Below are positions 5,362-48,594 of a stretch of DNA of 64,000 nucleotides, one piece after another. The notes beneath the pieces were generated by a model. The model was not told the origin of the DNA and did not search any database. It saw only the letters and a list, made by a program, of their open reading frames with translations. The DNA comes from a virus. The stretch is from the IMG/VR virus record IMGVR_UViG_3300025096_002712, positions 1-64,000 of that record, one strand, 5' to 3'. Every line of letters begins with the position of its first letter. Within the stretch, counting starts at the first letter, position 1. The translations under genes and the position numbers were made by a program.

Positions 5362-5377
5362 TATAAAGGAGATAACA

Positions 5378-6916: not shown

Positions 6917-7345
6917 ATGGGAGCAAGAGAAAAAGATTTAAATCCAGATACTTTTATTGGATTAAAACTTCCATTGGGATATTCAGATTCAGGATATTTC
7001 AAACAAACTAAAACTACAATTGAACAGGCAAAATATAATATTATTAATTTAATGAAAACTGTTCCTGGAGAAAGACTCGGCCAGCCAGCTTTTGGATCCT
7101 TGTTACAGAATATATTATTTGAACCAATGGATGGAGAAATTGGAGATAGGATAGAGGAGGCAATTAGAGATACACTTGCAAAATGGTTGCCATATATTAA
7201 TATTACAAATATAGAAGTTACTCAACCAGAACACGATAATAATAGAGTTAATGTAGCCATAGATTTTGGGTTGTCATTTGAACCTGATAGATTCGAAAGT
7301 GTGTCAATAGACTTTGAACAATTCGAATCAGCTATTAAAGAATAA
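6917..7345 (+). CDS. Baseplate wedge protein, T4 gp25/GPW-like
   Basis: 'NIINLMKTVPGERLGQPAFGSLL..ILFEP' and 'IRDTLAKWLPYINI' are gp25-family motifs. Confidence 0.85.
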   Translation: MGAREKDLNPDTFIGLKLPLGYSDSGYFKQTKTTIEQAKYNIINLMKTVPGERLGQPAFGSLLQNILFEPMDGEIGDRIEEAIRDTLAKWLPYINITNIEVTQPEHDNNRVNVAIDFGLSFEPDRFESVSIDFEQFESAIKE

Positions 7346-10814: not shown

Positions 10815-11270
10815 ATGCCATACGATTCAGAAGCATTAAAAACAAATGAGTTTTATCAAAACTTAGTTAGAAAAGATGAAAAAAAATATGTTGATTTAAT
10901 AAGAAAAAAATTATTAGATGGTGATATAAATACTGGTACTTTGAGAGATGCAGATACAGGAAATATTTTATTGTTTGAAACTGTAGTACCTGGTGAGGGA
11001 TCCAATGGTTTAAGTTTTAATCCATCAAGATTATCAAAAAATATGGATAGACAATATTTGTCCAAGGCAAAACCATCTGGTAAGAAGAAAAAATCAGGAA
11101 AAAAAATAAAAAAAGGTAAAAAGTTTTCTAAGGAAATAAAAGAGAAAAATGAAATACCAGTCCAATCTACAGGTAGATTACATACATTAGTTAAGCCTTG
11201 GGGTGTTGGGTATTTTGATTACGATACTTCAGATGAGAAGATAATAGATAAAGAGTTTACGGAATTATAA
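10815..11270 (+). CDS. Hypothetical virion protein with a Lys-rich insertion
   Basis: 151-aa ORF containing KPSGKKKKSGKKIKKGKK; translationally coupled to the giant gene downstream. Confidence 0.6.
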   Translation: MPYDSEALKTNEFYQNLVRKDEKKYVDLIRKKLLDGDINTGTLRDADTGNILLFETVVPGEGSNGLSFNPSRLSKNMDRQYLSKAKPSGKKKKSGKKIKKGKKFSKEIKEKNEIPVQSTGRLHTLVKPWGVGYFDYDTSDEKIIDKEFTEL

Positions 11271-14200
11271 TGGCTAAGAAAAAGTATTTAACTGCTGATC
11301 CACTAAGTGGAAAATTATCGAGGATTAATCCTAAAGATTTAAAATTGATAAATGCTAAAGGATTAAATGATGGTGATCCTATTGCTCTTTATGGAACTTT
11401 AACTACCGATATAATAGAATATTGTGTTTATGATAATAGTGATAACTATTTGGGTTCTGGTGAACTTTTGTATCCTTTTGATGACGAGTTAGATGTGGGT
11501 GGTCATGTTAGAGGACTTGGGTACAATCGTGGAACTTATAAAATAGTTTATAATTTTTTAAGACGAGTTGGTGGATCAAATAATGTAGTTTTAACGAAAA
11601 GAGTAGATAAAAGTATTTGGAAGGGCGCATATTATATAGATACTGATGGTAAAGTATATGCTGGTACGATGGATGAACCATTGTTGGACGAGAATGATGA
11701 ACAAATAGAACTTATCATTCAAGATGATAAATATTGGTTACAAGAAGTTTCTCCATCTCGAACTGAACTAAGACTTAGACCAAATCCAGGAATAAATGAC
11801 CTTGATTATCATGAACAATTTAGATTATTAGGTTATACTTGTTTAGCCTATTCTGATATAAGTGGTGAATCTTATATAATAATCAGTGATCCAGCTACTT
11901 CAGTAGAACAAGGTAAGAGCGAAAAAATCAATGAAACATCTTTTGATAATAGAGCTACTTTAGTTGGTAATAATATTAAATTAGATGAGGCAATGATAGG
12001 TGGTAATCTTATTGTACGAGATGCATTTATTATAGATACTGAAGAAACTCCAGAAGTAATATCAAAATATAATCCAATAATTGAAACAGATCAACTTTCT
12101 ATATCTGAAAACTTAGTTGATAATGGTGCATTTGAATCACAAAAATTGGCAGGTAAACTTATCCATCCTGAATCAGATACTAATTACCAACTTGCAGATT
12201 TTTGGAATCCTGGAAATAGTAAATATGTTTTACGAACAAAAGGTCAAGCCGTACCAGATGGAGTAAACAGAAATAGTTATACAATAGATATAAATGGTGC
12301 AGAAGGTGAAACTTATGTGTTAAGTTGTTGGGTATGGTACAATGACCAGTGGCCAGAACACGAAAAAGAATTATTTATTACAGACCAATCAGATAGTGCT
12401 GAAGTAACAGGGATAAGTGAAACTAAGGAAGTGAATGGAAGAACTTGGGAAAGACACTATACAAGAGTAACACCAACATCTGCAGATGGAAATTTTAAAT
12501 GGTTTTTGGGAAAAACCGATACTGTAGAAGCCGGGCCGAATGCTAGAAGGTATATAACAAATATACAATGTGAACCTGGATCACTAACATCATTACCCAC
12601 ACCTTATATAAATAAACCAAGAACTGAAGAAATTGAAGTTACAACTACTGGTAAAATTACATTTAAAAATGACGGAAGTTCAGAATATGTTGAAACTATA
12701 ATACCAGATGAAGATGAAGGATTTACTGATAATATGGTTGGTGGTAAACTTACCATTAAAGATGCCGTAATTTCAGATGAAATAGTACGAGAATCAACTG
12801 AAAGGATTGCACTTGAGAATATTCCAGTTGATAATACAGATGCATTTAATATAAGAGATAATGGAAACGAGGGAGAGTTTCATAAAAGTCCATTTCATGG
12901 AGTTACGGACGCTGAATCCAATGAATTAAAAGTATCGTTACAGGCAAAAGATGAATATTGGTTATATCATAATACAACTATGATTGGGCAGTATGAAATT
13001 CCAGAAGAAGTAAGAGAAATTGATGATTTGACGATAACTAATCGTACTGGTATGACGATTAGAGATAATGGAAACGAGGGAGAGTTTCATTATACCAGAA
13101 GTCCTTTCCACAATTTTCATCAGATATCGGAAACAGAACAACCTAAAAACACTTTAAAGTTTACACTACAGGTTGATTGGCAGTTTACCCTAATCCATAT
13201 TAAAGGCCCCAATTCTTTAGAAGGTGAAGGAACTGAATATGTTATTCGTGATAATTGGAGATCAAATTGGCAGAGTTCCACTACATATGAACTTACACCA
13301 TCAGTCAGTTCTGGAGATTCAAGATATGTAGATGTAGCTGATAATGATAATAGAAGTATTTATGGGTTTGAACATGGTGATACATTACGATTAAATGCAT
13401 ATAATATAGGAGCTAAAGCAGGATTTTTAGGTAAAATTGAACATGACCTATTTTCAAAAACAGTATATAGAACGGGTGATTCGAAAAAAAATTATGCACA
13501 AGGTGGTAGTGGCACAGTCAATCGTTATAATGGAATATGGAATCTCACCGAGGTAAGTCACGGAGGAACTGCTAATGATTGGAAAATTTGGCATGATTAC
13601 AAGTATGATGAAAAGAAAGAAAAAGTAAATAAAGAGAATAGTTTTTGGGAATCAAAATATATAACCCCTGAGTTATTGTCAAGTAAATGGATATGGGCAA
13701 GAACCCAAGCCAATAGTCAGCTAACTGTTTGGGAGTGGACAAATGAAGATATAGGTGCTGCTATTTTTAAATATCCAGATCCTATATTACATGCAGATGC
13801 AATATCCGTAGAGGGATGGTCTAATGGAGATATGTCCTGGGAATGGGGCCAGCCTGAAACTCAGGTATTTTATAAGACCAGGTGGGCTGGATATCACGCA
13901 AAATGGACGAGAGGTGAAGGTCGAAGTGGTGGAAATACTATAAAGTTTATTGACCAAAACTCTCAATTTCAAAATCCAAATCATACAGGATATACTGGTG
14001 TTGGGTTTGATGAAAATGGAAATCAACTTACTGATACATCTCGTGTTTATTCAGCACGAAATAATCCTGGCCTTAGTGGTGATAGTTGGCAAACATTAGA
14101 ACACAGAGCAATGATTGTTGAACAATATTTGCCAGTTACATTGGCAACTCAAGGAATACAGCCAGGTGATATACTTAAAGTTTCTTGGTGGCAAAAAACA

Positions 14201-17200
14201 GATACTCCAGGAAAAGGTGCAAGAGTTATGTTGTCTGGTTGGAGAAAAGATTTACCATCTCCTGAAGGTAGTTGGTATTCGTATGGTGAGAATGGTCTCC
14301 GCAATACGACACATAATTGGGGCCCTGGTAGTAATTTTGGTCCAGAGTTCATACCAATAGATAAAGAGGGTGTATGGACAAAGGCAGAGTTCACTGCTGT
14401 AGTACCAGAGGCATGGGATTTAACAAAAATGTATCATCCTGCTTATTATGATGCTGATCGTAATATTGGTACTCAACTTAGAGTATATGGTAATTACGGT
14501 CCTGAAGGTATAGTTTGGGTGGAAGATATAAAAATATCCTTTGTTAATTCAGACCAACCAGAAGAAGTAACACATATATATACAGTTCCAAACTTTGAAC
14601 CATCAGATAAATTAAGAGTTAATGTCAAAAATTCAACTGGAGAATCGTTTGGATTTGTATCAAAAATAGAATATAAAGGTGGGGAATATAAAACAGGAGA
14701 TCCATACGAGGATTATTATCCAGATCCAGTTACGGGAGAAACAAAGGTTGTTAATTTACCAGGAACTTGGAAAATTGATGGTGGTGGTGCACTTAAAAAT
14801 AATGGTAAACCTACTGATGCTGACAATGTACTTCCAGACTTAAAAAAATCCGAGTGGTTATGGGATGCAGATGATTCAGTTGAGAAGAGTTTTATATGGT
14901 CTGCGATAGATGGAATTGAAAATTATATATGGCATTATCCTGATCCAAAATTGAGAACTGATGCAATCTGGCCAACAAATTGGAATAATGGGTTTTATAA
15001 TTGGGATTTAACCGATAATACAGATAGGTTTTATCATAGTGGTTGGATAGGACATCATGCTAAATGGGTTGATGGAGATGGTCGAGATGGTGATGCTTGT
15101 ATGAAGTTCATTGATCAAAACTCTAAATTTATTTCATCAAATGACTTAACATATACAGGTTTATATGGTACTGGACTCTCAGACGATGAGGAAATATCAT
15201 TGGTACATAGACCAATGTGGCTTTACCAAAAGTTACCACATACACTCGAAGATAGAGGTATTCAAGTAGGAGATCAACTTACTATCTCTTGGAGACAAAA
15301 GTCAGATACCATTGGAAAAGGTGCGGCAGTTGGATTATTACATAGAAGTCTTGATGGTGGTCAGATGGGTTTCGGAGATGACATAGGAATAAATCATCCC
15401 GCACAAACAGATGATTGGTTAGAATTGACGGATAAACAATGGTTTAGATATAAACCCGTTAGTCAAGAAGGTGAATGGGAAGATGTTAGTTTTGATATAA
15501 CAGTTGATGAAAATACTATTGATTTAGAGGGAGATTCAATTCTCTATGTATATGGTCAATATGGACCTGAAGGTATATTATGGGTAGAGGGATTACAAAT
15601 TAGTAGAACTTCAGATATTATAACTAATTCAACTACTCCAATATTTTCTGATTTTGTTGGTTATATTCAGAGTGTAGATGAAAAGAATAAATTAACTTTG
15701 ACTGATACATATGATAATTTTGTAACCACCAATCTATATAAGGATAATAATGAATTAAATTTAAGGTCTTGGAGTACTTTTGATAATTTTTATGTTGATT
15801 ACACTTCATCACTTGCTACAAGTACCCCAGTATATGGTTCGTTACGCGGAGAGATACATGGAATAGAAAATAATACAATTATACTTTCAGAAGGTTTTAG
15901 GTCATTGGGTGAAGATGCAGGTCATGATTTTGAAAAAAATCCAGATGGATCTATGTTACCATTGGATAGGTGGTTTATTCAATATCCAAAGGATAGAAGT
16001 GAACCTTATAGTAAGTTACTTAAATATGGTCCCAATGAGTTTAGTTTGATAACTAATTTTAAGATAGATAGAGAATCTTATACTGATTATCCATATTCAG
16101 TAGTTTATAAATTATATGAGCCATTACCTGATGCAGTACAAGAAAAAGATTTTATTACTATCGTTAGAGAGATGGCTCCCCCGTTAGAAGAGGTTCTTAC
16201 TTTATATCCATTTGTAGAAGAATGGGTTAGTGATACGGTGTTGAGGACACCTTCATTTACTGGAACAAAAACAACCATTGGAGAGGGAAAAACAGAGTTT
16301 AAGACTTATGATGAGTTAGTATCAACTGATGTTGCTTTGAAAGAGGGTGTAGAAAATGAGATACTAAGTGGAAGTTTGAGTGCAGACATTAATGTAGATC
16401 ATTCTCAATTTTCTAACTTTGTACATTTCGGTTCAGTAGAAAAACGAATAAGAAACTTTAAATATAAATTAGAATTAATAGAACAATATACAGATAGAAG
16501 TGCTTCTCTTGCAGGTGCAGGAAGCTCATCCGCTGGATATTTATCGGTAGTGGCAGATCCAAACAAAGGTTCATATTTAAATGTATCTGGATCAAGTGGA
16601 TATAATCCAGCATTTACTCCAGTAAGTGGTTCATTAACACAAGTGCAGTCTTGGGAACAAAAACGCCGAGATACGATTAATTCGTTTGATAAGTTTGAAA
16701 AATATATGTTTTATGAAAGTTCATCATATTTAAGTGAATCTATTGGAATATCTTATGATAATTCTTGGCCAAAACGAGAAGGGGCAGGAACATATATAAG
16801 TCCTTATTTAAATTATAGAACTACTCAATCAGTTGCAACAACTTGGTTTGATAATCAAATAACATCAGCATCTGCATATGATAGGGAAAATAAAAATAGA
16901 GTACGAAGTCATCTTCCAGTTTTTGTACAAGATGATGACCAAAACGCAGTATTTCTTAATTTTATAGATATGATTGGTCATTATTTTGATGGTATTTGGA
17001 TATACATTAAGGCATTAACTGATATTCATGATAAGAGAGATAAATTAACTGATGGAATTGCCAAGGATTTATTGAAACCAATTGCACAATCACTTGGGTG
17101 GGAAGTCCACGATGGTAAAGATTTGGTATCTCTAAAAAGGTATATCTATGGAATGGAACAGAGTGGTTCTGAAACACCTTGGCAACATTCAATAACTCCA

Positions 17201-19804
17201 GATAGGGATATATCAAGAGAAATATGGAGTCGTGTTATAAATAATATGCCTTATTTCTTAAAAACAAAAGGAACTACACGGGCAATTAAAGGATTGATAA
17301 GTTGTTATGGTATTCCATCAAGTATATTACGAGTTATGGAATATGGAGGACCAGCTTTACCTGGAGTTCCACTTGATACTTTTTTAACGAGAAAATTTAC
17401 TAAAGCATTAAATTTTTACGGGGCATCAAATAATACATATGTTCAGAATAATACTTGGAAAACACATTTATCTGGAAGTAGTGCAACAAGTAGAGTACCA
17501 GATACAGTAGAGTTTAGATTTAGAGCAGCAAGTGGTTCAAATCAAGTATTAGTAAGACGAGGTGATGATTGGGGAATTAGACTAAAAGACAATAGTTCAG
17601 TTGATAATTACGGATATGTTTCGTTTATGTTGAGTGGTAGTAAGGGATATAATGAAGTAACTTCTTCTGAATTACCAGTTTATGATGGAGAGTTTTGGTC
17701 TGTAATGTTGACAAGGACATCTGCATCAGGACATACCTTGGTAACGGATAGTACCAGTCAAAATATGGCATATAATTTGCATGTTAAAAAATATGATGCT
17801 GGTAGAAGTAAACTTATATATGAATCTTCAAACACTTTAGCGGTAAGTGGGGCATTAGGAGCAACATCACAATCATATAATTTAGCTTATTCTGGTAGTG
17901 ATAAAACTGTTACTATTGGTGGTCCTCAAAGTACCTATTTTGGAGAATCATTTAGTGGTTCTATGATGGAATATAGAAACTGGACACAACCACTAAATAC
18001 CGCATCATTTGACAATCATGTAGCAGCCCCAATAGCATTTGATGGTAATTCACCATCTGCTTCATATTTAGATTTAATTACTCGATATTCGTTTGATGAT
18101 GATAAAGATTTAAGTGTGGGTGCGAATAATTGGTTTAGAGATGTAAGTGCAGACCAATCATTTACTTCATCAGCGATTCCATCTGGATATACAAGTGGGT
18201 TAGCATCTGGTACAGATTCACCTACACACTTTTCACGGGTGGTAGATGAAACAAAGATGAAAGTTCCAAACTTGGGTCCAAGTAGAATGTCATCAAATAA
18301 AATAAGAATTGAAGCAGATAGTTTAATAGATCCAGAATTAAGACAAAATCCGATATTAGATTTTGGTAAAAGTATTACAATACCAGCCTATGATACCGCA
18401 CCAATAGATAGTAATAAGCTCGGTATATTCTTTTCACCATCAAAGGCTATAGATGAGGATATTATTCTATCGATGCCCAATCTTGACTTTGACCAATACA
18501 TTGGTGATCCACGAGACCAATATAAAGAACAATATAGTGGATTAGTAGAAGCAAGAAATCTATATTGGAAGAAATATTCAGGTCCAAATAATTTTTGGGA
18601 TTATTTAAGATTATTAAAATATTATGATAGTTCATTATATGAACAAGTTAGAAGTTTAATTCCAGCACGGGCAAATGCTACAGTTGGTATTCTTGTAGAG
18701 CCTACAATTCTTGAAAGAGATAAAATTATTATTGGAAAAGAACCAACTTTTATTAGACAAGATTTACATAGTAAGATAATTGCTACTCAATATATTAGTG
18801 AAAGTGCACAATATCCAACTTATGAGTCAAGTATAAATTACAGTCATCCGTTTAGAATTAATTATCATACACAAGAAACTGGTTCATTTATTTCAGCATC
18901 ATCTGAGTATATACCATTGGATTCTTCAATCAATTATAGTAATCCATTTAAAATTAATTATTATACACAAGAAACTGGTTCATTTTATTCTGCATCAGCA
19001 GAATATATTCCATTAGATTCTCGTATAACTTATGGACGACCATATGTACCTAATTTTTATACTAATGAAAGTGGTTCACTTATTTCAGCTTCAGCAGAAT
19101 TTCAGAACTTAGAAAGTCTTATTAGATATTCAGATCCGTTTAGACCAAATTATTATACAAAAGAAAGTGGTTCATTCTTATCGGCCTCTGCAATATATGA
19201 AGATTTAGGAACTAATCTTAATATTAGAAATCCATTTATGTTAAATAATAGAACTCAAATGTCTGGTTCTATTATATCAATGTCTGCAGATTTTAGTTCG
19301 TGGAATGCACCAAGTGATACTTTGGCCGCCAATGCCAATGGAACGGGTTCATTTGTAATTAAACATATTTTAGAAAGACCAGCATTATATGGTATAGGTG
19401 ATAGAGATACGAGTGGGTGGTATGGAAATACTTTTTATAATTCAACCATACAACAAGGTGCTCAAAAATCTATTAGAGAAGAAGTGATAATGCCACGATA
19501 TGAAAACGGTGTTATATCAGAACTTAATAAAGAAGTTGAATATCACTTTTCATCTTCATTGAGTGCATCTTTAGGTCTATATTATTCATCAAGTTTCGTA
19601 TTATCTGATTTTGATAATAAGTGGGAACACGGACTTGGAACTAATAGATTATTTTATATTGGGTGTGTTCAAGATGGAAATACAACTGTAAGTGATAGGG
19701 GCAATAGATACCAAGATGAAACACCGGCAGTTGATATTACTATTACATCACCGACAAAATTAGTAACTACAGATTCACCATCTACTAAGTTAGATGTTGT
19801 TTAA
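11270..19804 (+). CDS. Giant (2844 aa) baseplate wedge/adhesin protein: gp7/gpI-like core with carbohydrate-binding-like modules and C-terminal repeats
   Basis: 'YFLKTKGTTRAIKGLISCYGIP' resembles the gp7/gpI KGT motif. Also has duplicated Trp-rich jelly-roll-like modules, a LamG-like region (VEFRFR...FWSVML) and about 31-aa tandem repeats. Confidence 0.65.
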   Translation: MAKKKYLTADPLSGKLSRINPKDLKLINAKGLNDGDPIALYGTLTTDIIEYCVYDNSDNYLGSGELLYPFDDELDVGGHVRGLGYNRGTYKIVYNFLRRVGGSNNVVLTKRVDKSIWKGAYYIDTDGKVYAGTMDEPLLDENDEQIELIIQDDKYWLQEVSPSRTELRLRPNPGINDLDYHEQFRLLGYTCLAYSDISGESYIIISDPATSVEQGKSEKINETSFDNRATLVGNNIKLDEAMIGGNLIVRDAFIIDTEETPEVISKYNPIIETDQLSISENLVDNGAFESQKLAGKLIHPESDTNYQLADFWNPGNSKYVLRTKGQAVPDGVNRNSYTIDINGAEGETYVLSCWVWYNDQWPEHEKELFITDQSDSAEVTGISETKEVNGRTWERHYTRVTPTSADGNFKWFLGKTDTVEAGPNARRYITNIQCEPGSLTSLPTPYINKPRTEEIEVTTTGKITFKNDGSSEYVETIIPDEDEGFTDNMVGGKLTIKDAVISDEIVRESTERIALENIPVDNTDAFNIRDNGNEGEFHKSPFHGVTDAESNELKVSLQAKDEYWLYHNTTMIGQYEIPEEVREIDDLTITNRTGMTIRDNGNEGEFHYTRSPFHNFHQISETEQPKNTLKFTLQVDWQFTLIHIKGPNSLEGEGTEYVIRDNWRSNWQSSTTYELTPSVSSGDSRYVDVADNDNRSIYGFEHGDTLRLNAYNIGAKAGFLGKIEHDLFSKTVYRTGDSKKNYAQGGSGTVNRYNGIWNLTEVSHGGTANDWKIWHDYKYDEKKEKVNKENSFWESKYITPELLSSKWIWARTQANSQLTVWEWTNEDIGAAIFKYPDPILHADAISVEGWSNGDMSWEWGQPETQVFYKTRWAGYHAKWTRGEGRSGGNTIKFIDQNSQFQNPNHTGYTGVGFDENGNQLTDTSRVYSARNNPGLSGDSWQTLEHRAMIVEQYLPVTLATQGIQPGDILKVSWWQKTDTPGKGARVMLSGWRKDLPSPEGSWYSYGENGLRNTTHNWGPGSNFGPEFIPIDKEGVWTKAEFTAVVPEAWDLTKMYHPAYYDADRNIGTQLRVYGNYGPEGIVWVEDIKISFVNSDQPEEVTHIYTVPNFEPSDKLRVNVKNSTGESFGFVSKIEYKGGEYKTGDPYEDYYPDPVTGETKVVNLPGTWKIDGGGALKNNGKPTDADNVLPDLKKSEWLWDADDSVEKSFIWSAIDGIENYIWHYPDPKLRTDAIWPTNWNNGFYNWDLTDNTDRFYHSGWIGHHAKWVDGDGRDGDACMKFIDQNSKFISSNDLTYTGLYGTGLSDDEEISLVHRPMWLYQKLPHTLEDRGIQVGDQLTISWRQKSDTIGKGAAVGLLHRSLDGGQMGFGDDIGINHPAQTDDWLELTDKQWFRYKPVSQEGEWEDVSFDITVDENTIDLEGDSILYVYGQYGPEGILWVEGLQISRTSDIITNSTTPIFSDFVGYIQSVDEKNKLTLTDTYDNFVTTNLYKDNNELNLRSWSTFDNFYVDYTSSLATSTPVYGSLRGEIHGIENNTIILSEGFRSLGEDAGHDFEKNPDGSMLPLDRWFIQYPKDRSEPYSKLLKYGPNEFSLITNFKIDRESYTDYPYSVVYKLYEPLPDAVQEKDFITIVREMAPPLEEVLTLYPFVEEWVSDTVLRTPSFTGTKTTIGEGKTEFKTYDELVSTDVALKEGVENEILSGSLSADINVDHSQFSNFVHFGSVEKRIRNFKYKLELIEQYTDRSASLAGAGSSSAGYLSVVADPNKGSYLNVSGSSGYNPAFTPVSGSLTQVQSWEQKRRDTINSFDKFEKYMFYESSSYLSESIGISYDNSWPKREGAGTYISPYLNYRTTQSVATTWFDNQITSASAYDRENKNRVRSHLPVFVQDDDQNAVFLNFIDMIGHYFDGIWIYIKALTDIHDKRDKLTDGIAKDLLKPIAQSLGWEVHDGKDLVSLKRYIYGMEQSGSETPWQHSITPDRDISREIWSRVINNMPYFLKTKGTTRAIKGLISCYGIPSSILRVMEYGGPALPGVPLDTFLTRKFTKALNFYGASNNTYVQNNTWKTHLSGSSATSRVPDTVEFRFRAASGSNQVLVRRGDDWGIRLKDNSSVDNYGYVSFMLSGSKGYNEVTSSELPVYDGEFWSVMLTRTSASGHTLVTDSTSQNMAYNLHVKKYDAGRSKLIYESSNTLAVSGALGATSQSYNLAYSGSDKTVTIGGPQSTYFGESFSGSMMEYRNWTQPLNTASFDNHVAAPIAFDGNSPSASYLDLITRYSFDDDKDLSVGANNWFRDVSADQSFTSSAIPSGYTSGLASGTDSPTHFSRVVDETKMKVPNLGPSRMSSNKIRIEADSLIDPELRQNPILDFGKSITIPAYDTAPIDSNKLGIFFSPSKAIDEDIILSMPNLDFDQYIGDPRDQYKEQYSGLVEARNLYWKKYSGPNNFWDYLRLLKYYDSSLYEQVRSLIPARANATVGILVEPTILERDKIIIGKEPTFIRQDLHSKIIATQYISESAQYPTYESSINYSHPFRINYHTQETGSFISASSEYIPLDSSINYSNPFKINYYTQETGSFYSASAEYIPLDSRITYGRPYVPNFYTNESGSLISASAEFQNLESLIRYSDPFRPNYYTKESGSFLSASAIYEDLGTNLNIRNPFMLNNRTQMSGSIISMSADFSSWNAPSDTLAANANGTGSFVIKHILERPALYGIGDRDTSGWYGNTFYNSTIQQGAQKSIREEVIMPRYENGVISELNKEVEYHFSSSLSASLGLYYSSSFVLSDFDNKWEHGLGTNRLFYIGCVQDGNTTVSDRGNRYQDETPAVDITITSPTKLVTTDSPSTKLDVV
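18790..19290 (+). repeat. About 93-bp (31-aa) degenerate tandem repeat, roughly 5 copies, inside the giant baseplate gene
   Basis: Units such as SINYSHPFRINYHTQETGSFISASSEYIPLD and SINYSNPFKINYYTQETGSFYSASAEYIPLD. Confidence 0.8.
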
Positions 19805-19829
19805 AACAGACAAAAATTGAAAAGGATTA

Positions 19830-19837
19830 TATTTATA
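19830..19837 (+). promoter_or_regulatory. Putative late-promoter motif TATTTATA (representative copy)
   Basis: The same motif occurs in intergenic gaps upstream of genes at 24028, 27387, 27790 and 36305; TATTTAT occurs at 2206, 31441, 51155 and 52760, and on the minus strand at 2142 and 36278. Confidence 0.6.
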
Positions 19838-19912
19838 AGTGAAGAATAACAAGTTTTATTATGTCGAATCTTATAAATTATATAGAATCCGCAGTATATA
19901 GGAGAAAAAACA

Positions 19913-20935
19913 ATGGGATATTTAAATAATTCAAGCCGAACATTAGACGCTATTTTGACAAAGAAAGGTCGAGAGATTTTGTCAACTGGTGGAGATTTTA
20001 ATGTTGCTAAATTTGCACTTGGGGATGACGAAATTGACTATGGATTGTGGGACACAACTCATACAAAAGGAACGGATTTCTATGGTGCAGTAATTGATAA
20101 CTTACCAACCCTTGAACCCTTCAACGATCCTTCAGAGATTATGAAATATAAACTCGTATCGAGGTCAGACGGAGTTCAGGCAATGGCTAAACTAATAGAA
20201 TTACAAGATTCTGTTAGACAATTAAAAAGTCTAAAGTGGTATGCATTAGATGAAGCTGGAGCTGGTGGAACAAGAGTTCAGGTTGGAAACACTAATACTT
20301 TTCTTGGTGTACCTGTTCAATTTGGTGTAGGTCATGTAGATAATCATGAACTTACAGTTGATTATAGTGGAGGACCAGACTCTATTTATTCTAATGGATA
20401 TGCAGGAGAAAGATTTACCTTAACATTATTAGATACAACTCAAGTAGTATTGGCACCACTTTGGGTGGATCCAGCACAGGTAGCTAGCCAACAGATACAA
20501 GAAATACTTGGAGCTCAGGGACCAGGAGCATTTGGTAAAGGTAAAGGAAAAGGTGCACCTAATGCTAATACTTCATCTGAAAGTCAGTATCTAAACATTC
20601 CAGTACCTAATAATGGTACTACTGGTTTATGGTATCCATTTGTACATTCAGTTCAACACCTTTCACAGACTATATCAGACTGTGTGGTGTCTAACGGAAC
20701 TTTTGCACATGCAAATGCACAATTTGCACCAACACAAAGTGGAAGAATTGCTTTATATCCAAAACGACTTACTTCTAATTCAAGTCCAGCAAAAACAACT
20801 TTAGTTGTTACGGGACAGACTTCAGGAGCAGTTAAGGAATTTGATGTTAAGATAACATTTAGATCTACATCATATACACCTTCGTTAGATATAGATGCAG
20901 GAACGGATACTTCACTTGATACATTTACAGGTTAA
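19913..20935 (+). CDS. Baseplate/tail-collar paralog A1
   Basis: N-terminal MGYLNN..DAILTKKGRE...KFALGDDEIDYGLW is shared by four tandem genes. C-terminal VTGQTSGA motif and an internal GKGKGKG. Confidence 0.65.
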   Translation: MGYLNNSSRTLDAILTKKGREILSTGGDFNVAKFALGDDEIDYGLWDTTHTKGTDFYGAVIDNLPTLEPFNDPSEIMKYKLVSRSDGVQAMAKLIELQDSVRQLKSLKWYALDEAGAGGTRVQVGNTNTFLGVPVQFGVGHVDNHELTVDYSGGPDSIYSNGYAGERFTLTLLDTTQVVLAPLWVDPAQVASQQIQEILGAQGPGAFGKGKGKGAPNANTSSESQYLNIPVPNNGTTGLWYPFVHSVQHLSQTISDCVVSNGTFAHANAQFAPTQSGRIALYPKRLTSNSSPAKTTLVVTGQTSGAVKEFDVKITFRSTSYTPSLDIDAGTDTSLDTFTG

Positions 20936-20967
20936 GAAATAATAATAGTTTTTATTAAGGGAATATA

Positions 20968-21687
20968 ATGGGATTTATAAATAATACTTCATATATCCTA
21001 AACGCAGTACTAACTAAAAAAGGTAAAGAATATCTTTCTAAAAGTAGTGGTAATTTTGCAATTACAAAATTCGCACTATCAGATGATGAGATAGATTACG
21101 CGTTATGGAATACGGCACATCCGAAGGGTAGTAATTATTATGGTGCAGTTTTAGAATCTACACCAATGTTAGAACCTTGTGTGGATCCTGAAGTTGTGAT
21201 GAAATATAAATTGTTTACAATGCCTGTGGGTACTAAAACATTACCATACATAACAGATATTACACAATTATTAAAAGTAACTGCAACTGATGGTACGGTA
21301 AATGATAGTAGGTTAAAATCTATTCAAACTGATGAAGGTAGTTGGACACTTACCGAGGCAACTATAAATCCAACAACGGTTGGAGCAGACCAATCTTTTC
21401 AGGATGAAAACTATAGTTTCTTGTGTTTAAATATGAATGTTGTTGATATGAGATTGGGAACTTTAGGTACAGGTGAAGTTTTTGATGATTTACCATTAGG
21501 TGGGGCTATTTATGGTGAAGAAAGTGGTAGATTGAGTACAAAATTAGTTGGGGAATCAATAACTATTAAGGCAAAACAGATGACATTTGATAGAGAAACT
21601 TCTATTATTATAACAGGACAAAAATCTGGAGCTATATATGTACTTAGGGTACAAGTAACATTTGATGACCAAAGGGCTAGTAATTAG
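20968..21687 (+). CDS. Baseplate/tail-collar paralog A2
   Basis: Same N-terminal motif; C-terminal ITGQKSGA motif. Confidence 0.65.
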   Translation: MGFINNTSYILNAVLTKKGKEYLSKSSGNFAITKFALSDDEIDYALWNTAHPKGSNYYGAVLESTPMLEPCVDPEVVMKYKLFTMPVGTKTLPYITDITQLLKVTATDGTVNDSRLKSIQTDEGSWTLTEATINPTTVGADQSFQDENYSFLCLNMNVVDMRLGTLGTGEVFDDLPLGGAIYGEESGRLSTKLVGESITIKAKQMTFDRETSIIITGQKSGAIYVLRVQVTFDDQRASN

Positions 21688-21689
21688 TT

Positions 21690-22178
21690 GTGGGATATAT
21701 AAATAAAACTTCATTGGCAGTGGACGCAATTCTTACTAAAAAAGGTATAGATTATTTAAGAACCGCAGTATTTGGTGAGAATCAAAATGGTGAGCATGTA
21801 ATTACAAAATTTGCATTAGCTGATGACGAAATAGATTATGGATTATGGGATGAAACTCCAAGTGGATCTAATTATGTGAGACCACTCGGTACGATAATTG
21901 ATAATCAACCAATCGTAGAACCAGTAATTACTGATAATGAAATTATGAGTTCTCTATTATTTAAAGAGGGTATAGTATTATCTACTCAACCAGAGGCACC
22001 GATAGTTTCTATTCCTCCAGTAGCAAATTTTAGTATGTTTTCGAGTGGCATACCACCTGTTTCGAAATTCAATATGAAAGCAAGAGATAGTTTAACACCG
22101 ATACCTTTAAAACCTACCCAATACAATAAATCTGGTATGAAGGGAAAAGGAAAAGGACCATTTAGTTTAAAAAATTAG
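21690..22178 (+). CDS. Baseplate/tail-collar paralog A3 (short, with two PPVxxF strands and a KGKGKG tail)
   Basis: GTG start, same N-terminal motif, then PPVANFSM, PPVSKFNM and GMKGKGKGP. Confidence 0.65.
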   Translation: MGYINKTSLAVDAILTKKGIDYLRTAVFGENQNGEHVITKFALADDEIDYGLWDETPSGSNYVRPLGTIIDNQPIVEPVITDNEIMSSLLFKEGIVLSTQPEAPIVSIPPVANFSMFSSGIPPVSKFNMKARDSLTPIPLKPTQYNKSGMKGKGKGPFSLKN

Positions 22179-22186
22179 GATAAAAA

Positions 22187-22744
22187 GTGGGATATATAGA
22201 TAAAACATCATTAACTGCAACAGCACATTTTACCAAGAAAGGTCGAGAACTTTTGGCAGATGCACTGGCAGGTTCAGTAGATGATTCTTATGTTATTACT
22301 AAGTTTGCATTAGGTGATGAGGAAATAGATTATGGACTTTGGGATGAGTCACAACCATCAAACTTACAGGGAAGAATTATTGAGAACATGCCTATACTTG
22401 AATCTTTTATAAGCCAAAAAGAAATTATGAATTCATATGTTATGGTAGAAACCCCAGAAATTACTAATGGATCTTCAATTTCTAATATCTTAGGTCAAAT
22501 ATCACTTGAGGGTGTAGGGGATACAATTGATTTAATACCATCAACTGAAAATTTAGATGAAACTGAAGAATATGAATTTTTTCTTGAAGAAGATAATGTT
22601 GTAGAGATGACAAATCCACACATACCACCAGTTTCAGATTTTAATATGAGCATTAGTATGTTACCACCACCATTGGCAGATTTTATTATGTCTATGGTAC
22701 CAGGATATCCACCTGTAGCTGGTTTTACTATGGAAGAAGCATAA
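22187..22744 (+). CDS. Baseplate/tail-collar paralog A4 (N-terminal part, ending in three PPxAxF strands)
   Basis: GTG start, same N-terminal motif, ending PPVSDFNM, PPLADFIM, PPVAGFTM. Confidence 0.65.
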   Translation: MGYIDKTSLTATAHFTKKGRELLADALAGSVDDSYVITKFALGDEEIDYGLWDESQPSNLQGRIIENMPILESFISQKEIMNSYVMVETPEITNGSSISNILGQISLEGVGDTIDLIPSTENLDETEEYEFFLEEDNVVEMTNPHIPPVSDFNMSISMLPPPLADFIMSMVPGYPPVAGFTMEEA

Positions 22745-22756
22745 AGGAGATAAAAT

Positions 22757-23209
22757 ATGGCAATTTCAGGAATAGTCCCATTAACAGTAGATTTTACTAA
22801 TACATCTATGGGAGAAAATTTATCGTATTCATGGGATTTCGGTGATGGACAAACTTCTATGGAAGCAAGCCCATCACACACTTATGAAGTAGTAGGAGAC
22901 TATACGGTAACTTTAACTACTACAAATAATTACGGAACGGATACTAAGTTAGATTATATTTCGGTTAGTCTTGGAGTAAGTTTACCACCTGAAGGTCCAG
23001 GAGAACCACCAGGAGGTAAAGGTAAAGGTAAGGGTAGCCCACCCGGCCCACCAGCAGGAATATATCAATATGGGGCCGCTGGAGGACCACCAGGAGGTAA
23101 CGGTAAAGGTAAAGGTGCACCACCAGGAGGTAACGGACAAGGACAAACAGGACCACCAGCAGGAATATATCAATATGGGGCCGCTGGACAACCACCAGAT
23201 GAAAAGTAG
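22757..23209 (+). CDS. PKD-domain protein with a Gly/Pro/Lys-rich repeat tail
   Basis: PKD signature 'PLTVDF...YSWDFGDG...PSHTY...GDYTVTLT', its own AAGGAGA SD, and a tail with GKGKGKG and GPPAGIYQYGAAG x2. Confidence 0.85.
   Translation: MAISGIVPLTVDFTNTSMGENLSYSWDFGDGQTSMEASPSHTYEVVGDYTVTLTTTNNYGTDTKLDYISVSLGVSLPPEGPGEPPGGKGKGKGSPPGPPAGIYQYGAAGGPPGGNGKGKGAPPGGNGQGQTGPPAGIYQYGAAGQPPDEK
23048..23188 (+). repeat. Exact 36-bp direct repeat (23048-23083 and 23153-23188) within the PKD tail
   Basis: CCACCAGCAGGAATATATCAATATGGGGCCGCTGGA occurs twice, 105 bp apart; CCACCAGGAGGTAA occurs three times nearby. Confidence 0.9.
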
Positions 23210-23229
23210 AAGAGTAAAGGAGGCTTGTA

Positions 23230-23664
23230 ATAGATACACCATTTGCAAATTTTGAGGTCAGAATACCTTATGTAAATAATGGTTCTTATAATGTAGCAAA
23301 AAAGAATAAATTGTTTCACAGTAATAAAATTGAAATTAGAAAATCTTCATTACAGGGATATGGAGTTTTTTGTACAAAAAATATTAAAGAGGGAGAATTG
23401 TTAGAGGAATGTCATTATTTAGAAGTTTCGGATGATGAAAAACTCGCCAGGTATTATTACAACTGGCCAAGGGGAGAAAAGTTTAAAAAATATACAATTC
23501 CACTTGGATTTGGGTGTATATATAATGGAACATCTTCTTCTGGAAAAGAAGCAAATGTGGATTGGAAAACAGATGTAGATAATGATATTTTTATATTTAT
23601 AGCAATTAAAGATATAAAAAAAGGAAGTGAATTATTATTAGATTATGATTATGGGGAATATTAG
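23230..23664 (+). CDS. SET-domain protein (putative lysine methyltransferase) 1; probable non-canonical ATA start at 23230 (track start is TTG 23311)
   Basis: SET motifs 'SSLQGYGVFCTKNIKEGELLEEC', 'GFGCIYN' and 'AIKDIKKGSELLLDY'. The frame is open upstream to TAA 23215, and AAGGAGG at 23217-23223 lies 6 nt before ATA 23230. Confidence 0.8.
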   Translation: MDTPFANFEVRIPYVNNGSYNVAKKNKLFHSNKIEIRKSSLQGYGVFCTKNIKEGELLEECHYLEVSDDEKLARYYYNWPRGEKFKKYTIPLGFGCIYNGTSSSGKEANVDWKTDVDNDIFIFIAIKDIKKGSELLLDYDYGEY

Positions 23665-23669
23665 ATAAT

Positions 23670-24005
23670 ATGTTAAGTGTAAATCAAACACCAAAAGATG
23701 GAGTAGGACAAGAAAAAACCTTGTATGGTCATGCTGTCAGATTAAGGGCTAAAAATTTGACCACTACGAGAACGACTACTTTAAAAGTAACGGGTATGTC
23801 AAGTGGGGCTGTATTTTATGTTGATATTGTTGTTACACCAAAAGGTACAGGAGAAAAGGCAGTTTTTGGAAAACCTATATCGGCACCCATAGGATTAATA
23901 TCTAATAAAAAAGGTAGAAGAAAAACACCTGCAAGTCAAAAATCTAAAGGAATTGTAAAAGGTGGAACTTTAAGTGGTACAACAACACTTAAAAGTTCAA
24001 AATAA
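23670..24005 (+). CDS. Stand-alone C-terminal domain of the paralog-A family with a basic tail
   Basis: 'LRAKNLTTTRTTTLKVTGMSSGAVFYVDIVVT' aligns with the C-termini of A1 (TTLVVTGQTSGAV) and A2 (IKAKQMTFDRETSIIITGQKSGAI). Confidence 0.65.
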   Translation: MLSVNQTPKDGVGQEKTLYGHAVRLRAKNLTTTRTTTLKVTGMSSGAVFYVDIVVTPKGTGEKAVFGKPISAPIGLISNKKGRRKTPASQKSKGIVKGGTLSGTTTLKSSK

Positions 24006-24054
24006 AAATTAAAATTTTAAAACAACATATTTATATGTAATAAGGAGATAAACA

Positions 24055-25158
24055 ATGGCAGAAGTAAGTAATTTTTTCACACCCATAGAGGATACGGATA
24101 AGAGGACTAATATAATTAGTACCGTTTCGTCGCCTGTATGGTCTGGTGGAACAGCAACATTAACTTCTTTCTATACAGGCTCTACGCAGAGTGCTAGTAG
24201 TGGTGATTATTACTATGACATATACGATAAAGCAGGAAGTGATACTACAAGGGCTGTACAATTTGCAGTTTCGTATGGACACGTTCATGGTAGTGGTTCA
24301 AAATCCACTTCTGCTGGTAATAATCCATCTAAGGCAATATATCGTCAGTTCAGAAACATTTGTATTAAAAACGCTCATAGTGGTGTTAGATTTAATTTTA
24401 ATGCGGACGGAGCTGGTACATCTTATGACGGAAAAGATATATTCGCAATTAGTGTAAACAGAGCACGGTACAGAGAGAAGTTGGATCCAGGAAACTGGGA
24501 ACTACATTTAAGTGGAAGTAGAGCACAAGGTCGTGGCGAATCCGTATTAAAACTCATTGATGATAGTGGTGCAACCGCAGATTCTACAATTAAAGCATCA
24601 CAAAGGAGATTTAATGTAGTTACTGGTTCAATTTCAGATGGAACTTCAAGAATAAAGACAACGGCTGTAAATCAATCAGCAGGTGGTAGTGGTTCATTTG
24701 GATATGTATATCCAGAACTTGGTATTATTGTATTAAATGCAGAAGCAATAGCTTCTCATTCTATCGGATATCATAACTCTGGTTCAGTCGCAGTTAAAAC
24801 AAATGCACTCAATCTTGTTAGGTCAAGTGGTACAAATAATGACAACGCTAAACAATTGGTAGATTGTATCAATAGTGGTTCATACTTTCAAGCAAGAAGG
24901 GAAGAACAAATTAAATCATCTCATTATTTTTGTAGAGTTAAGTCTGGAGAATATAACTATAGTCAAAACCCGACTTATTTTACGGGGTCTAATGCTGAAT
25001 TGAAAAATTCGAGTTTCGTTCAAGATCCAAAATCGTATATAACTACGGTTGGATTGTACAATGATAACAATGAATTGTTAGCTGTGGCTAAATTGAGTCA
25101 ACCGCTGTTAAAATCAAAAGACAGAGAAGCAGTAATCAAAGTACGATTAGACTTTTAG
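24055..25158 (+). CDS. Baseplate/tail-collar paralog B1
   Basis: 'RYREKLDPGNWELHL' and C-terminal 'YITTVGLYNDNNELLAVAKLSQPL..IKVRLDF', shared by three tandem genes. Confidence 0.65.
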   Translation: MAEVSNFFTPIEDTDKRTNIISTVSSPVWSGGTATLTSFYTGSTQSASSGDYYYDIYDKAGSDTTRAVQFAVSYGHVHGSGSKSTSAGNNPSKAIYRQFRNICIKNAHSGVRFNFNADGAGTSYDGKDIFAISVNRARYREKLDPGNWELHLSGSRAQGRGESVLKLIDDSGATADSTIKASQRRFNVVTGSISDGTSRIKTTAVNQSAGGSGSFGYVYPELGIIVLNAEAIASHSIGYHNSGSVAVKTNALNLVRSSGTNNDNAKQLVDCINSGSYFQARREEQIKSSHYFCRVKSGEYNYSQNPTYFTGSNAELKNSSFVQDPKSYITTVGLYNDNNELLAVAKLSQPLLKSKDREAVIKVRLDF

Positions 25159-25174: not shown

Positions 25175-26230
25175 ATGGCTTTTAAATCTTTTAATCCCGA
25201 AGATAGAGCAGAAAATATAGTCAATAAGGTAGCCGAAAGGATGTGGTCGGATAATACCGCAACTTTGACTACTTTCTATACTGGATCTACACAGAATTCC
25301 AATACTGGCAAGTATTATTTAGATGTTCATAAATCTAGCGACGAAAGTACGGATGTACAATTCGCTATATCTTATGGTCATTACGCTGGTTCTGGTTCTG
25401 AAGGTTCGACTACATCAGGAACTACTAATCCTACTAAGGCAATTTATTCACAACTGAAACAAGTTTTATTGCCACCACAAACTACTAAGTTTAATTTTCA
25501 TGGAAATTCAGGAGCAAATTACTATAGCGATGATGTTTTTGCCATTGTTAGTAACAGAGCTCGTTATAGAGAAAAAATGGATCCTGGTAACTGGGAATTA
25601 CATTTAGTAAGTGGTAGTACGACAGTAAAACTTATTGACGATAGTGGGGCAAGTCGTGACCAAAGACTTAAAGCTGCTAATAGAGAGTTTAATATAGTTA
25701 GTGGTTCAATTGCAAACGATGAGTATAGGATAAATACTACAGCATCTGCATCTGCAGCTGCAACTAATTCTGGTTCGTATGGTTTATTCTATCCAGAATC
25801 GGGTATTATTTTATTAAATCCAAATGCATTATCAAATACTCGTATGAATATAGGTAGGGCCTCTGGTTCATATGTCATTCCACAACTTGTAAAAAGTACT
25901 TCTACTAACAATTATGAACATAGAAAACTATTGGAGTCTATACAATCGGGTAGTTATTTTTCAGCACGTAGGGAAGAAGTGAGAAGAAGTTCGTTTTATT
26001 TTTGTAGAGTTGAAAATTCTGAATTTAATCATAGTCAAAATCCATCATTTTTTACAGGATCAAACGCACAATTACTTCATAATTCTTTTATTGCTGAACC
26101 AACAACTTACATAACATCTGTTGGACTTTATAATAATCAAAATGAATTATTAGCAGTGGCCAAGATGTCTAAACCATTTAAGAAGGATCCGAATACCGAA
26201 GCCTTGATCAAAGTAAGACTTGATTATTAA
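25175..26230 (+). CDS. Baseplate/tail-collar paralog B2
   Basis: Close paralog of B1 along its full length (RYREKMDPGNWELHL; YITSVGLYNNQNELLAVAK). Confidence 0.65.
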   Translation: MAFKSFNPEDRAENIVNKVAERMWSDNTATLTTFYTGSTQNSNTGKYYLDVHKSSDESTDVQFAISYGHYAGSGSEGSTTSGTTNPTKAIYSQLKQVLLPPQTTKFNFHGNSGANYYSDDVFAIVSNRARYREKMDPGNWELHLVSGSTTVKLIDDSGASRDQRLKAANREFNIVSGSIANDEYRINTTASASAAATNSGSYGLFYPESGIILLNPNALSNTRMNIGRASGSYVIPQLVKSTSTNNYEHRKLLESIQSGSYFSARREEVRRSSFYFCRVENSEFNHSQNPSFFTGSNAQLLHNSFIAEPTTYITSVGLYNNQNELLAVAKMSKPFKKDPNTEALIKVRLDY

Positions 26231-26241
26231 AGGAGATTCCA

Positions 26242-27369
26242 ATGTTTAAGGATATATCTTCTGATGATAGGTCAATACAAAATTTCAAAACTTATAAACA
26301 ATTCACCTTTACACATTCAGATAGTGGAAGTGGGGTTTTTGGACTTGAAGGAATAAGTGGAAGTTTTCATAATTTCTTAACTGGTTCCGCAGAATCTCAG
26401 AGTTATGGTGTATTTAATGCAGAATCAAAAAGTTTTGGTAAAGATTGGGATACTTGGTATAGTTGTGGAACTTTTCATAAGATACCCCTGTATTACACTA
26501 TAGCTAATTTATATTATAAATACGATAAGATTCCTAATCCTAAATCTACTACTACTAAAATGCCAGTATATACTGCCACTCCTTGGAGTAGAAAAGATCC
26601 ACACGGTAGGAGAGATTGGGGATCAATAATTCCACGACAATTACATAGTTCGGTAAATGTTATAACAATTCCACAAAAATATTTTGGAGAAGAAATTAAA
26701 CCTGGTTCTATTAAACTACTTGACGATAGTGGTGGAACAACATTAGATTTGAGAGACGATGGTCATGGACAACTTTATGATTATCAATATTCAGAAAGTT
26801 TTGCAGCAGGAACTCCAGGTGGTAGTACCAATTCTTACACAGGAAGTGTTGTTGGTAATGTATTTTATGAACATGGTTTAATAACTATTACCGATACTGG
26901 TTCATTATATAGGTCGGCAAGTTTAAAATTGGGATCAGATGGATTTTCCGTGAGATTTAAAGCTACAAAAACATCTACTGAGTATCAGTATTTATGTAAT
27001 ATAAGTAAATATGAATTTAATAGTAGTACAAACCCAAGTTTGGTTAGGGGTAGAAGTGGTAGTATATATGTTCCACATGATGCAAAATATATTTATGATG
27101 GTGATATACAAAAAGGAACTTTATACCCACCACTTTATGCAAAAACTATAGATTTGGTATTACAGGCAGCAAGTAGTTCTTATGATGTAACATATAATCC
27201 AGGAACATTATATGAAAACTTCACCACACATTCAGAATTTGGGACATATATTACAAATGTTGGTTTATATAATGATTCAAATGAGTTATTGGCTATTGCA
27301 AAATTATCAAATCCTATAAAAAATGAAAAAGATTTACCACTTTCATTTTTAGTACGATTTGACTCATAA
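26242..27369 (+). CDS. Baseplate/tail-collar paralog B3
   Basis: 'FGEEIKPGSIKL' and C-terminal 'YITNVGLYNDSNELLAIAKLSNPIK...VRFDS'. Confidence 0.6.
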   Translation: MFKDISSDDRSIQNFKTYKQFTFTHSDSGSGVFGLEGISGSFHNFLTGSAESQSYGVFNAESKSFGKDWDTWYSCGTFHKIPLYYTIANLYYKYDKIPNPKSTTTKMPVYTATPWSRKDPHGRRDWGSIIPRQLHSSVNVITIPQKYFGEEIKPGSIKLLDDSGGTTLDLRDDGHGQLYDYQYSESFAAGTPGGSTNSYTGSVVGNVFYEHGLITITDTGSLYRSASLKLGSDGFSVRFKATKTSTEYQYLCNISKYEFNSSTNPSLVRGRSGSIYVPHDAKYIYDGDIQKGTLYPPLYAKTIDLVLQAASSSYDVTYNPGTLYENFTTHSEFGTYITNVGLYNDSNELLAIAKLSNPIKNEKDLPLSFLVRFDS

Positions 27370-47898: not shown

Positions 47899-48181
47899 AT
47901 GGGGTGGTAAAGAAAATACAATAATACCAAAATGTGTATGTCCAACAAGTGGAGTAATATATTTGTCTGAAATAAGACAAGAACTTGAATCAACGAGTAA
48001 TTCAAATGATTATGGTAATGGGCCATGGACTACTAATACGACAACATTAAAAAATTGTAATCTCTTCGTGTATGATAGTAGAAATACTAATTCAGATGAT
48101 TATCCAAATAGTTCAGAACCACATAAGATGACAGAGTGGTATAGTTATCATCATAACGCAACAAGTGGTATGGGGATGTAA
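47891..48181 (+). CDS. Small fibre-tip-associated protein
   Basis: 'PTSGVIYLSEIRQEL...PHKMTEWYSY' pattern of small proteins that follow S74 fibres. Confidence 0.5.
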   Translation: MVKWGGKENTIIPKCVCPTSGVIYLSEIRQELESTSNSNDYGNGPWTTNTTTLKNCNLFVYDSRNTNSDDYPNSSEPHKMTEWYSYHHNATSGMGM

Positions 48182-48594
48182 TGAATAAATTATTTCATAA
48201 TAATAAAATTGAAGTTAGGGATTCATCTATACATGGACGAGGAGTTTTTGCAAAAGAAGATATTAAAAGTGGTGAAATCTTAGAAGAATGTCATTATATT
48301 GTGGTAGATGATGGTAATTCACACGATATGCCACTTTATAAATGGCGTCGTTTAACAGATAGTAATATACAAATTGATGAACGGAAATTTCAATGGCCTA
48401 AAGGTGAAGATTTTGAAAAATATACAATACCATTTGGATTTGGTACTATATACAATAGTGTATTAAACGAAGAAGAAAGAAGTGTTAATTGGGAAAATGA
48501 TTTAGATAGAGATATTTATAGATTTTTTACAGTTAAAGATGTAAAAAAAGATGAAGAACTTTTATTATATTATCATAATGGCAAATTTAAATAA
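48181..48594 (+). CDS. SET-domain protein (putative lysine methyltransferase) 2
   Basis: 'SSIHGRGVFAKEDIKSGEILEEC', 'GFGTIYN' and 'KDVKKDEELLLYY'; clear paralog of SET 1. Confidence 0.8.
   Translation: MNKLFHNNKIEVRDSSIHGRGVFAKEDIKSGEILEECHYIVVDDGNSHDMPLYKWRRLTDSNIQIDERKFQWPKGEDFEKYTIPFGFGTIYNSVLNEEERSVNWENDLDRDIYRFFTVKDVKKDEELLLYYHNGKFK

Follow-up and report, generated by a model that had tools for sequence, protein, structure and literature searches.

SET-domain lysine methyltransferases are familiar from textbooks as enzymes of chromatin, and to our knowledge almost nothing has been established about their roles in bacteria and phages. What is a SET gene doing among the tail genes of a marine phage, and what would its product methylate? 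We examined these questions at a locus of the IMG/VR virus record IMGVR_UViG_3300025096_002712, in which a small SET gene (SET1, 23230..23664 on the + strand) follows the gene for a PKD-domain protein (22757..23209) whose C-terminal tail carries Gly-Lys repeats. The window that we analysed is the first 64 kb of this 106,290-base viral contig, which is estimated to be 45% complete. An earlier note on this DNA had suggested that the phage methylates lysines on its own proteins. We favour such a reading, in which SET1 and the Gly-Lys (GK) tails are an enzyme-substrate pair and the phage methylates its own tail-module proteins, and give it a probability of about 0.4.

SET1 and the Gly-Lys repeat sites of the window

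SET1 matched the Pfam SET family (PF00856) over profile positions 1-104 of 105 (42.6 bits; cut-off 22.4). The best match among solved sequences was the chlorovirus protein vSET (1n3j, E 2e-8), with SET1 residues 4-112 aligned to vSET residues 3-105. An AlphaFold2 model of SET1 built on 44 homologues had a predicted local distance difference test score (pLDDT) of 90.8. Its best fold match was again vSET (3kma_A; template-modelling scores 0.75/0.83, 30% identity), and 302 SET-domain chains of the PDB matched the model at E <= 0.001. The GxG element that binds S-adenosylmethionine (SAM) reads GYG at residues 16-18, and both G16 and G18 are invariant in the 44 homologues, as are Y71-N72, the latter being the Asn of the NH motif, and E107, while the catalytic-Tyr position, Y112, is at least 90% conserved. 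The C-terminal motif SELLLDYDY aligns with EEITISY of vSET. As far as sequence and a predicted model can tell, the SET fold and motifs of SET1 are intact, and SET1 can be placed in the SET family as a divergent member that is likely to be active.

Several features are common to SET1 and vSET (A612L of PBCV-1). Both are virus-encoded minimal SET proteins of ~117-119 aa that lack both pre-SET and post-SET domains, and both genes have a late or virion-associated context (PMC7019647 for vSET). However, vSET acts on histone H3K27 and belongs to a virus of eukaryotes, whereas the host of SET1 is bacterial and has no histone H3, and the phage has a T4-like baseplate. SET1 also differs in lacking the NH-motif His, in having only 5 residues after the catalytic Tyr, in carrying an N-terminal ANF peptide (see below), and in its candidate substrate, a phage tail-module protein. 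The core of 117 aa is preceded by a 27-residue N-terminal extension that lies outside the SET fold, and the Pfam match begins at residue 43 of the extended protein.

Relatives of SET1 were found in 66 protein-database clusters and on at least 224 viral contigs. A tblastn search with SET1 gave a sole match, in an unannotated 735-kb uncultured phage (LR756501.1 / LR756503.1, 692297-692566; 39.6% identity over 91 residues). SET1-like genes are thus common in uncultured viruses, though the function of phage SET proteins is nearly unstudied: in the literature that we searched they appear as annotations only (PMC9025141), and we found no functional study.

We then scanned all open reading frames (ORFs) of at least 60 aa, on both strands of the whole contig, for GK repeats with a regular expression. 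(GK)n occurs at four sites only, all within 20534-23116 and hence within the 2.6 kb just upstream of SET1, and the motif positions listed in the earlier note were recovered at exact coordinates. Two of the sites are in members of a family of four paralogs, A1-A4: GKGKGKG at 20534-20554 (residue 208 of A1, 19913..20935) and KGKGKG at 22140-22157 (residue 151 of A3, 21690..22178, 6 residues ahead of the stop). The other two, GKGKGKG at 23015-23035 and GKGKG at 23102-23116, are in the tail of the PKD protein, where Lys is the only basic residue. With G and K each making up 7.2% of 34,568 residues, chance would give 0.065 occurrences of GKGKG, against the four sites seen. The repeats are encoded by GGT/AAA in A1 and the PKD gene and by GGA/AAA/AAG in A3, and their flanks differ too, indicating that the sites did not arise by copying of a single DNA segment.

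All four sites are held in Pro/Gly-rich stretches that are probably disordered. The site in A1 lies inside a lineage-specific insert, within a hypervariable loop that is flanked on both sides by a strongly conserved block; in a related locus, L005, the equivalent loop of the A1 homologue (4640-5593) carries GGGGNRKKRKPGRGAP, and the L005 contig ends before the position of SET. A variant contig of a related strain, from an RNA library (run X18), has an in-frame 9-nt insertion, GGTAAAGGT, at 23014, which adds Gly-Lys-Gly to the first repeat of the PKD tail. Repeat number therefore varies in nature with the reading frame kept.

Gly-Lys tails in related loci and the N-terminal extension of SET1

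Related loci were gathered using the A family, the SET family and B1, the first of three paralogs downstream of SET1 (24055-25158), as queries, and 31 non-redundant loci spanning the PKD gene through B1 were compared, with B1 serving as the phylogenetic marker for a tree. SET lies between the PKD gene and B1 in seven of the 31 (the window, L244, L247, L447, L446, L182 and L016), and a profile search in six frames revealed no hidden SET in the other 24. In every one of the seven SET-bearing loci the PKD tail is made of Gly-Lys units with Lys as the only basic residue and no Arg, the units being GKGKGKG, GKGPNGKG, NGKKGGKG...NGKKKG, GNGKGKGKG or (GNGKG)n. Of the SET-less loci, 21/24 have no GKG at all in the PKD tail, which consists instead of polyglutamine/asparagine runs, (GGNTGGV)n, a Hint domain, a second PKD domain, or a long Arg-rich coiled coil. 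Without correction for kinship, the association between SET and GK gave p 1e-5 in a Mann-Whitney test and p 7e-4 in a Fisher test. The state of SET changes four times in the B1 tree, and in each of the independent contrasts the tail shifts the same way. The association is thus non-random and clade-specific among the loci compared.

Four allele types of SET are present in these loci, 57-69% identical to one another, and their repeat units differ (GKGKGKG, GKGPNGKG, NGKKGGKG and GNGKGG), so that the Lys-Gly character has outlasted the turnover of the repeats. Outside the PKD tail, GK 4-mers were seen in A1 (window and L244) and A3 (window and L446), all of these being SET-bearing loci. Across 28 SET-less loci (~77,000 residues), we found a single conserved GK 4-mer site outside the PKD tail, in the small protein Ctail.

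The position of the Gly-Lys repeats appears to be one of extreme turnover at a single protein tail. Pure polyglutamine runs of 20-30 residues are found in the PKD tails of the SET-less loci L174, L177, L180, L011 and L260, and (GGNTGGV)n in those of L166 and L167. Hint (intein-like) domains replace the low-complexity tail in L006 (7893-8558) and L264 (237-911).

Analysis of the region between the PKD gene and SET1 showed that the called start of SET1 (TTG 23311, giving 117 aa) lies within a longer conserved frame. In every lineage with SET, no stop codon interrupts this frame over at least the 27 codons that precede the called start, and these 27 codons are conserved at the protein level in five lineages. 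The resulting extension (TPFANFEVRIPYVNNG...) is a conserved peptide, x-P-x-(A/S)-N-F-(E/T)-x-x-x-P-Y-x-x-N...K-x-K, joined directly to the first SET strand, and it is also present within the independently called, ATG-start database homologues P0008, P0009, P0010 and P0012. In the window, a perfect AAGGAGG Shine-Dalgarno (SD) sequence at 23217-23223 is followed by 6 nt and an in-frame ATA at 23230. The same arrangement is seen in L244, and the equivalent starts are GGGGG, 6 nt and ATC in L016, GTG in L182, and an upstream ATG in L247. SET1 probably starts at the weak, non-canonical ATA 23230, giving a protein of 144 aa, and not at TTG 23311. A model of this extended protein, built on a 12-sequence alignment, had a pLDDT of 51, and its disordered N-terminal extension is not usable as evidence.

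The PKD protein of the window (~150 aa) matched PKD_4 (PF18911 / PF00801) with 64 bits at profile positions 20-79 of 85, the match starting from protein residue 7. The first ~19 profile positions, corresponding to the A strand, are missing from this gene. In L005 (6830-7639), A4 and PKD are naturally fused in one ORF, and here the Pfam match runs from profile position 4, on PTADFTE; the PxANF motif therefore corresponds to the first strand of PKD. The A4 protein of the window (22187..22744) bears three C-terminal PxAxF motifs, the last of which, PPVAGFTMEEA, ends the protein and corresponds to the PKD A strand, and A3 has two strand-like PPV(A/S)xF motifs. A scan of 35,645 residues of the contig proteome gave nine matches to the PxANF-type motif, of which five are in A3 (two) and A4 (three). 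The SET1 extension, being outside the called ORFs, is a sixth copy in the A3-A4-SET1 cluster. On sequence grounds, the PKD domain is divided among genes, its opening strand residing on other proteins, and a strand of this kind is also present in SET1. No ANF extension was found on SET2, the second SET protein of the window, or on the SETs of other clades. The extension is an indirect pointer to binding of SET1 to the PKD protein with the GK tail.

Direct fusions at this locus were also considered. Read-through from A4 into the PKD gene was ruled out in the window by in-frame TAA codons at 22742 and 22751 and by an AGGAG preceding the ATG at 22757. A PKD-SET fusion by -1 frameshift was ruled out as well, since the SET frame is interrupted by a TAA (23215-23217) that comes after the PKD stop.

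Methylation of the tail proteins and its alternatives

If SET1 and the GK tails are an enzyme-substrate pair, SET1 would be made in small amounts together with the late tail and baseplate genes, and would bind SAM through the conserved GxG, Y-N and ELxxDY elements, which are recognised at the level of sequence and fold only. Its PxANF peptide, equal to the missing first β-strand, would tether SET1 to the PKD protein by strand complementation. The tethered enzyme would then methylate GKG lysines of the adjacent flexible PKD tail and, in the genome of the window, also those of the A1 loop and the C-terminal end of A3. Methylation would keep the positive charge of the tail and, by analogy with the mycobacterial adhesin HBHA, might protect an exposed adhesive tail from trypsin-like proteases or from other chemistry at its lysines. 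A fuller sequence of events, in which SET1 docks by PxANF, methylates the tail of the strand-deficient PKD protein, and the PKD protein then passes to the C-terminal strands of A3/A4, seems to us rather doubtful.

Parts of this scheme have parallels in known systems. Yeast Set5 monomethylates K5, K8 and K12 of histone H4, which lie in GKG contexts (PMC8329514), and such flexible basic sequences can therefore be substrates of SET enzymes. Set5 is, however, a large SMYD-type eukaryotic protein with no specific sequence relation to SET1, and the likeness extends to the proposed substrate only. The C-terminal Lys-rich repeats of HBHA are mono- and dimethylated, and the methyllysines are reported to give resistance to proteolysis (Pethe et al. 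2002, cited in PMC8467707); this surface adhesin offers a functional model for the methylation of an exposed Lys-rich tail. In contrast to SET1, the methyltransferases of HBHA and of Rickettsia OmpB are non-SET enzymes, and the HBHA repeats are Lys/Ala/Pro-rich, not Gly-Lys, on a surface protein that is bacterial and not from a phage. Methyl-lysine on structural proteins was first reported in 2026, from free virions of marine Cellulophaga phages (mSystems), which are stated to encode no methyltransferase, host enzymes being suggested (PMC13288928). Unlike these, the present phage has its own candidate enzyme adjoining the candidate substrate.

What is new here is the candidate self-substrate, the co-variation of the Lys-Gly tail with SET, and the strand-like docking peptide. 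Should the fuller docking scheme be borne out, it would be the first instance of lysine methylation of a phage's own tail-module proteins by a self-encoded, substrate-docked methyltransferase. Methylation of the GK tails by SET1, if confirmed, would establish phage-directed lysine methylation of tail proteins, and would provide a handle on why the low-complexity tails that such proteins expose differ so widely from one related phage to another.

A number of observations weigh against an enzyme-substrate pair. The comparison of loci holds only 3-4 phylogenetically independent contrasts, for which a sign test has a floor of p 0.25. L008 retains a long GNGKGG tail although it lacks SET, and the likewise SET-less L181 and L265 have two GKG. 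Between L247 and L447, SET is 98% identical and the tails are near-identical, while B1 is 82% and the PKD domains 67% identical; between L446 and L447 the reverse is seen, B1 being 91% and SET only 65% identical, with different tails. The PKD tail and SET thus appear to be one recombining cassette, and since they are adjacent and recombine as a block, their co-occurrence could arise from linkage alone. The upstream frame or the ribosome-binding site of SET overlaps purine-rich GK-coding DNA in L247, L182 and L016, which is possibly another constraint that has nothing to do with a substrate. Furthermore, we found no GK-rich segment within 10 kb of SET in 42 other SET-bearing phage lineages, where the neighbours of SET are acetyltransferases, glycosyltransferases, helicases, PhoH, thymidylate kinase and the like, and none of 118 viral (GK)>=4 loci had a SET gene in the flanks examined. 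The co-occurrence of SET and GK motifs in relatives, which the earlier note had proposed as a check, is therefore present within the clade (7/7 SET-bearing against 3/24 SET-less loci with G/K tails) but not beyond it (0/42 lineages, 0/118 loci). As for its proposal of self-methylation, the intact SET domain, the non-random and block-confined GK sites and the co-occurrence within the clade speak for it, whereas the link between enzyme and tail is confounded by adjacency and by the small number of contrasts.

These observations would also be expected from linkage with no enzyme-substrate relation, in which SET1 targets a host protein or another phage protein during infection, as is probably the case for most phage SET proteins, and the GK tail co-travels in the cassette, with GK-coding DNA overlapping or preceding the translation start of SET. 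We regard this explanation as possible. It does not readily account for the retention of Lys-Gly across such divergent SET alleles while SET-less tails turn over fast. The GK repeats of the window are 115-215 nt from the SET start, which is too far for them to be the ribosome-binding site of SET, and the extra sites in A1 and A3, which occur in SET-bearing genomes only, are 1-2.8 kb from SET. The ANF extension, in addition, points to contact with the PKD protein.

Methylation of the phage's own tail must also be weighed against the use of SET1 as a virion-carried effector, which would be loaded on the tail or baseplate, through the ANF strand or with the Lys tail as a pseudo-substrate, and, on entering or contacting the host at infection, would methylate host proteins in the manner of packaged vSET. 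The closest solved relative of SET1 is indeed encoded and packaged by PBCV-1 (PMC7019647), and both SET genes of the window are among baseplate and tail-fibre genes. SET lies beside a single A gene in distant small phages and between giant structural-type proteins in L120, and a conserved, docking-like N-terminal extension would fit this role too. However, the packaging of SET1 is putative only, and the probable weak ATA/ATC start suggests low, catalytic amounts of protein. If ANF fills the slot of the A4 strand, binding of a PKD protein to SET1 and to A4 would be mutually exclusive, and an effector gives no reason for a Lys-Gly tail specifically, unless the tail is at least a pseudo-substrate. 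On balance we consider an effector role improbable.

A last point against methylation by SET1 is that the His of the NH motif is absent: as the earlier note had read it, the motif is YNG in SET1 and YNS in SET2. The position is occupied by G/S/T/A throughout the closer subfamily, YNHS being kept in distant members only, and the missing His is therefore not a private defect of SET1. SET1 is probably a working enzyme under constraint that manages without one of the canonical residues. That it is instead an inactive SET fold, serving solely as a lysine-tail-binding or assembly module, would agree with this loss of His across the subfamily but is very unlikely, since GxG, Y71, N72, E107 and Y112 are invariant or nearly so across 44 sequences, as for a working enzyme, and active PR/SET enzymes such as PRDM9 also lack the His.

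The tail-module setting and further SET genes

The + strand holds every credible gene of the window, which has a base composition of 30-35% G+C. Upstream of A1 lie a weak match to gp10 domain 3 (3982-5361; 27.9 bits, cut-off 27), a tail-fibre protein homologue (5883-6905), a gp25-like baseplate wedge protein (6917-7345) and a gp6/Baseplate_J-like wedge protein (7357-9288), and a 2844-aa protein (11270-19804) directly precedes the A1-A4 array. The wedge and tail-fibre genes, together with the fibre genes flanking SET2, place the locus in a tail and baseplate block, by its gene content that of a large myovirus-type (jumbo) marine phage. The candidate substrates had been described earlier as virion or baseplate proteins. 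The wedge and tail-fibre homologues nearby agree with this, while the assignment of A1-A4 to the baseplate rests on position only.

A1-A4 have in common an N-terminal domain of ~90 residues (MGYxNxTS...DDEIDYGLWD), and A2 (20968..21687) is without a GK motif. SET1 is followed by Ctail (23670..24005), which has a TGxSSGAV C-terminal motif as in A1/A2 and a K/R-rich end. The basic tail noted previously in the gene after SET1 is present, with KKGRRKTPASQKSKGIVKGG near its C-terminal end. Ctail is an independent gene; most relatives (L010-L016, L166, L246) have it behind A3 and others have it behind PKD/SET, and we could thus rule out that 23670-24005 is the second half of an A4 gene split by the PKD-SET cassette. 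The paralogs B2 (25175-26230) and B3 (26242-27369) complete a set of conserved neighbours downstream of Ctail that begins with B1.

Neither the A nor the B paralogs matched any described family, and queries of a protein atlas with A2 and B1 returned only clusters of the type 'hypothetical protein, Uroviricota'. No match was obtained in a blastn search of the block against GenBank phages, and a scan of 19700-24200 for promoters and terminators gave nothing exceeding the shuffled expectation. The stretch recurs in near-identical form in marine metagenomes, in at least 14 runs that come from about a dozen studies. Contigs from RNA libraries span parts of A1, the PKD tail, Ctail, B1 and B2, and not SET1; they are uninformative on expression, because they are assembled contigs and RNA libraries can hold DNA.

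SET2 (48181..48594) matched the Pfam SET family with 34.7 bits and is 51% identical to SET1. It lies between tail-fibre genes, the proteins of which carry an endosialidase chaperone domain. We found no GK motif in its neighbourhood, and the suggestion that both SET proteins act on GK motifs is thus without support in the case of SET2.

In smaller, distant phages (L088, L089, L091 and L108), a 134-aa SET at ~9580-10393 lies directly upstream of the only A-family gene, and B-family genes come next. This represents a second, different adjacency of SET to the A/B module, and no GK motif was found in these four. Finally, weak Pfam matches to Hint domains are present in the window downstream of SET2, at the C-terminal ends of the proteins encoded at 49053-50135 and 51236-52732.

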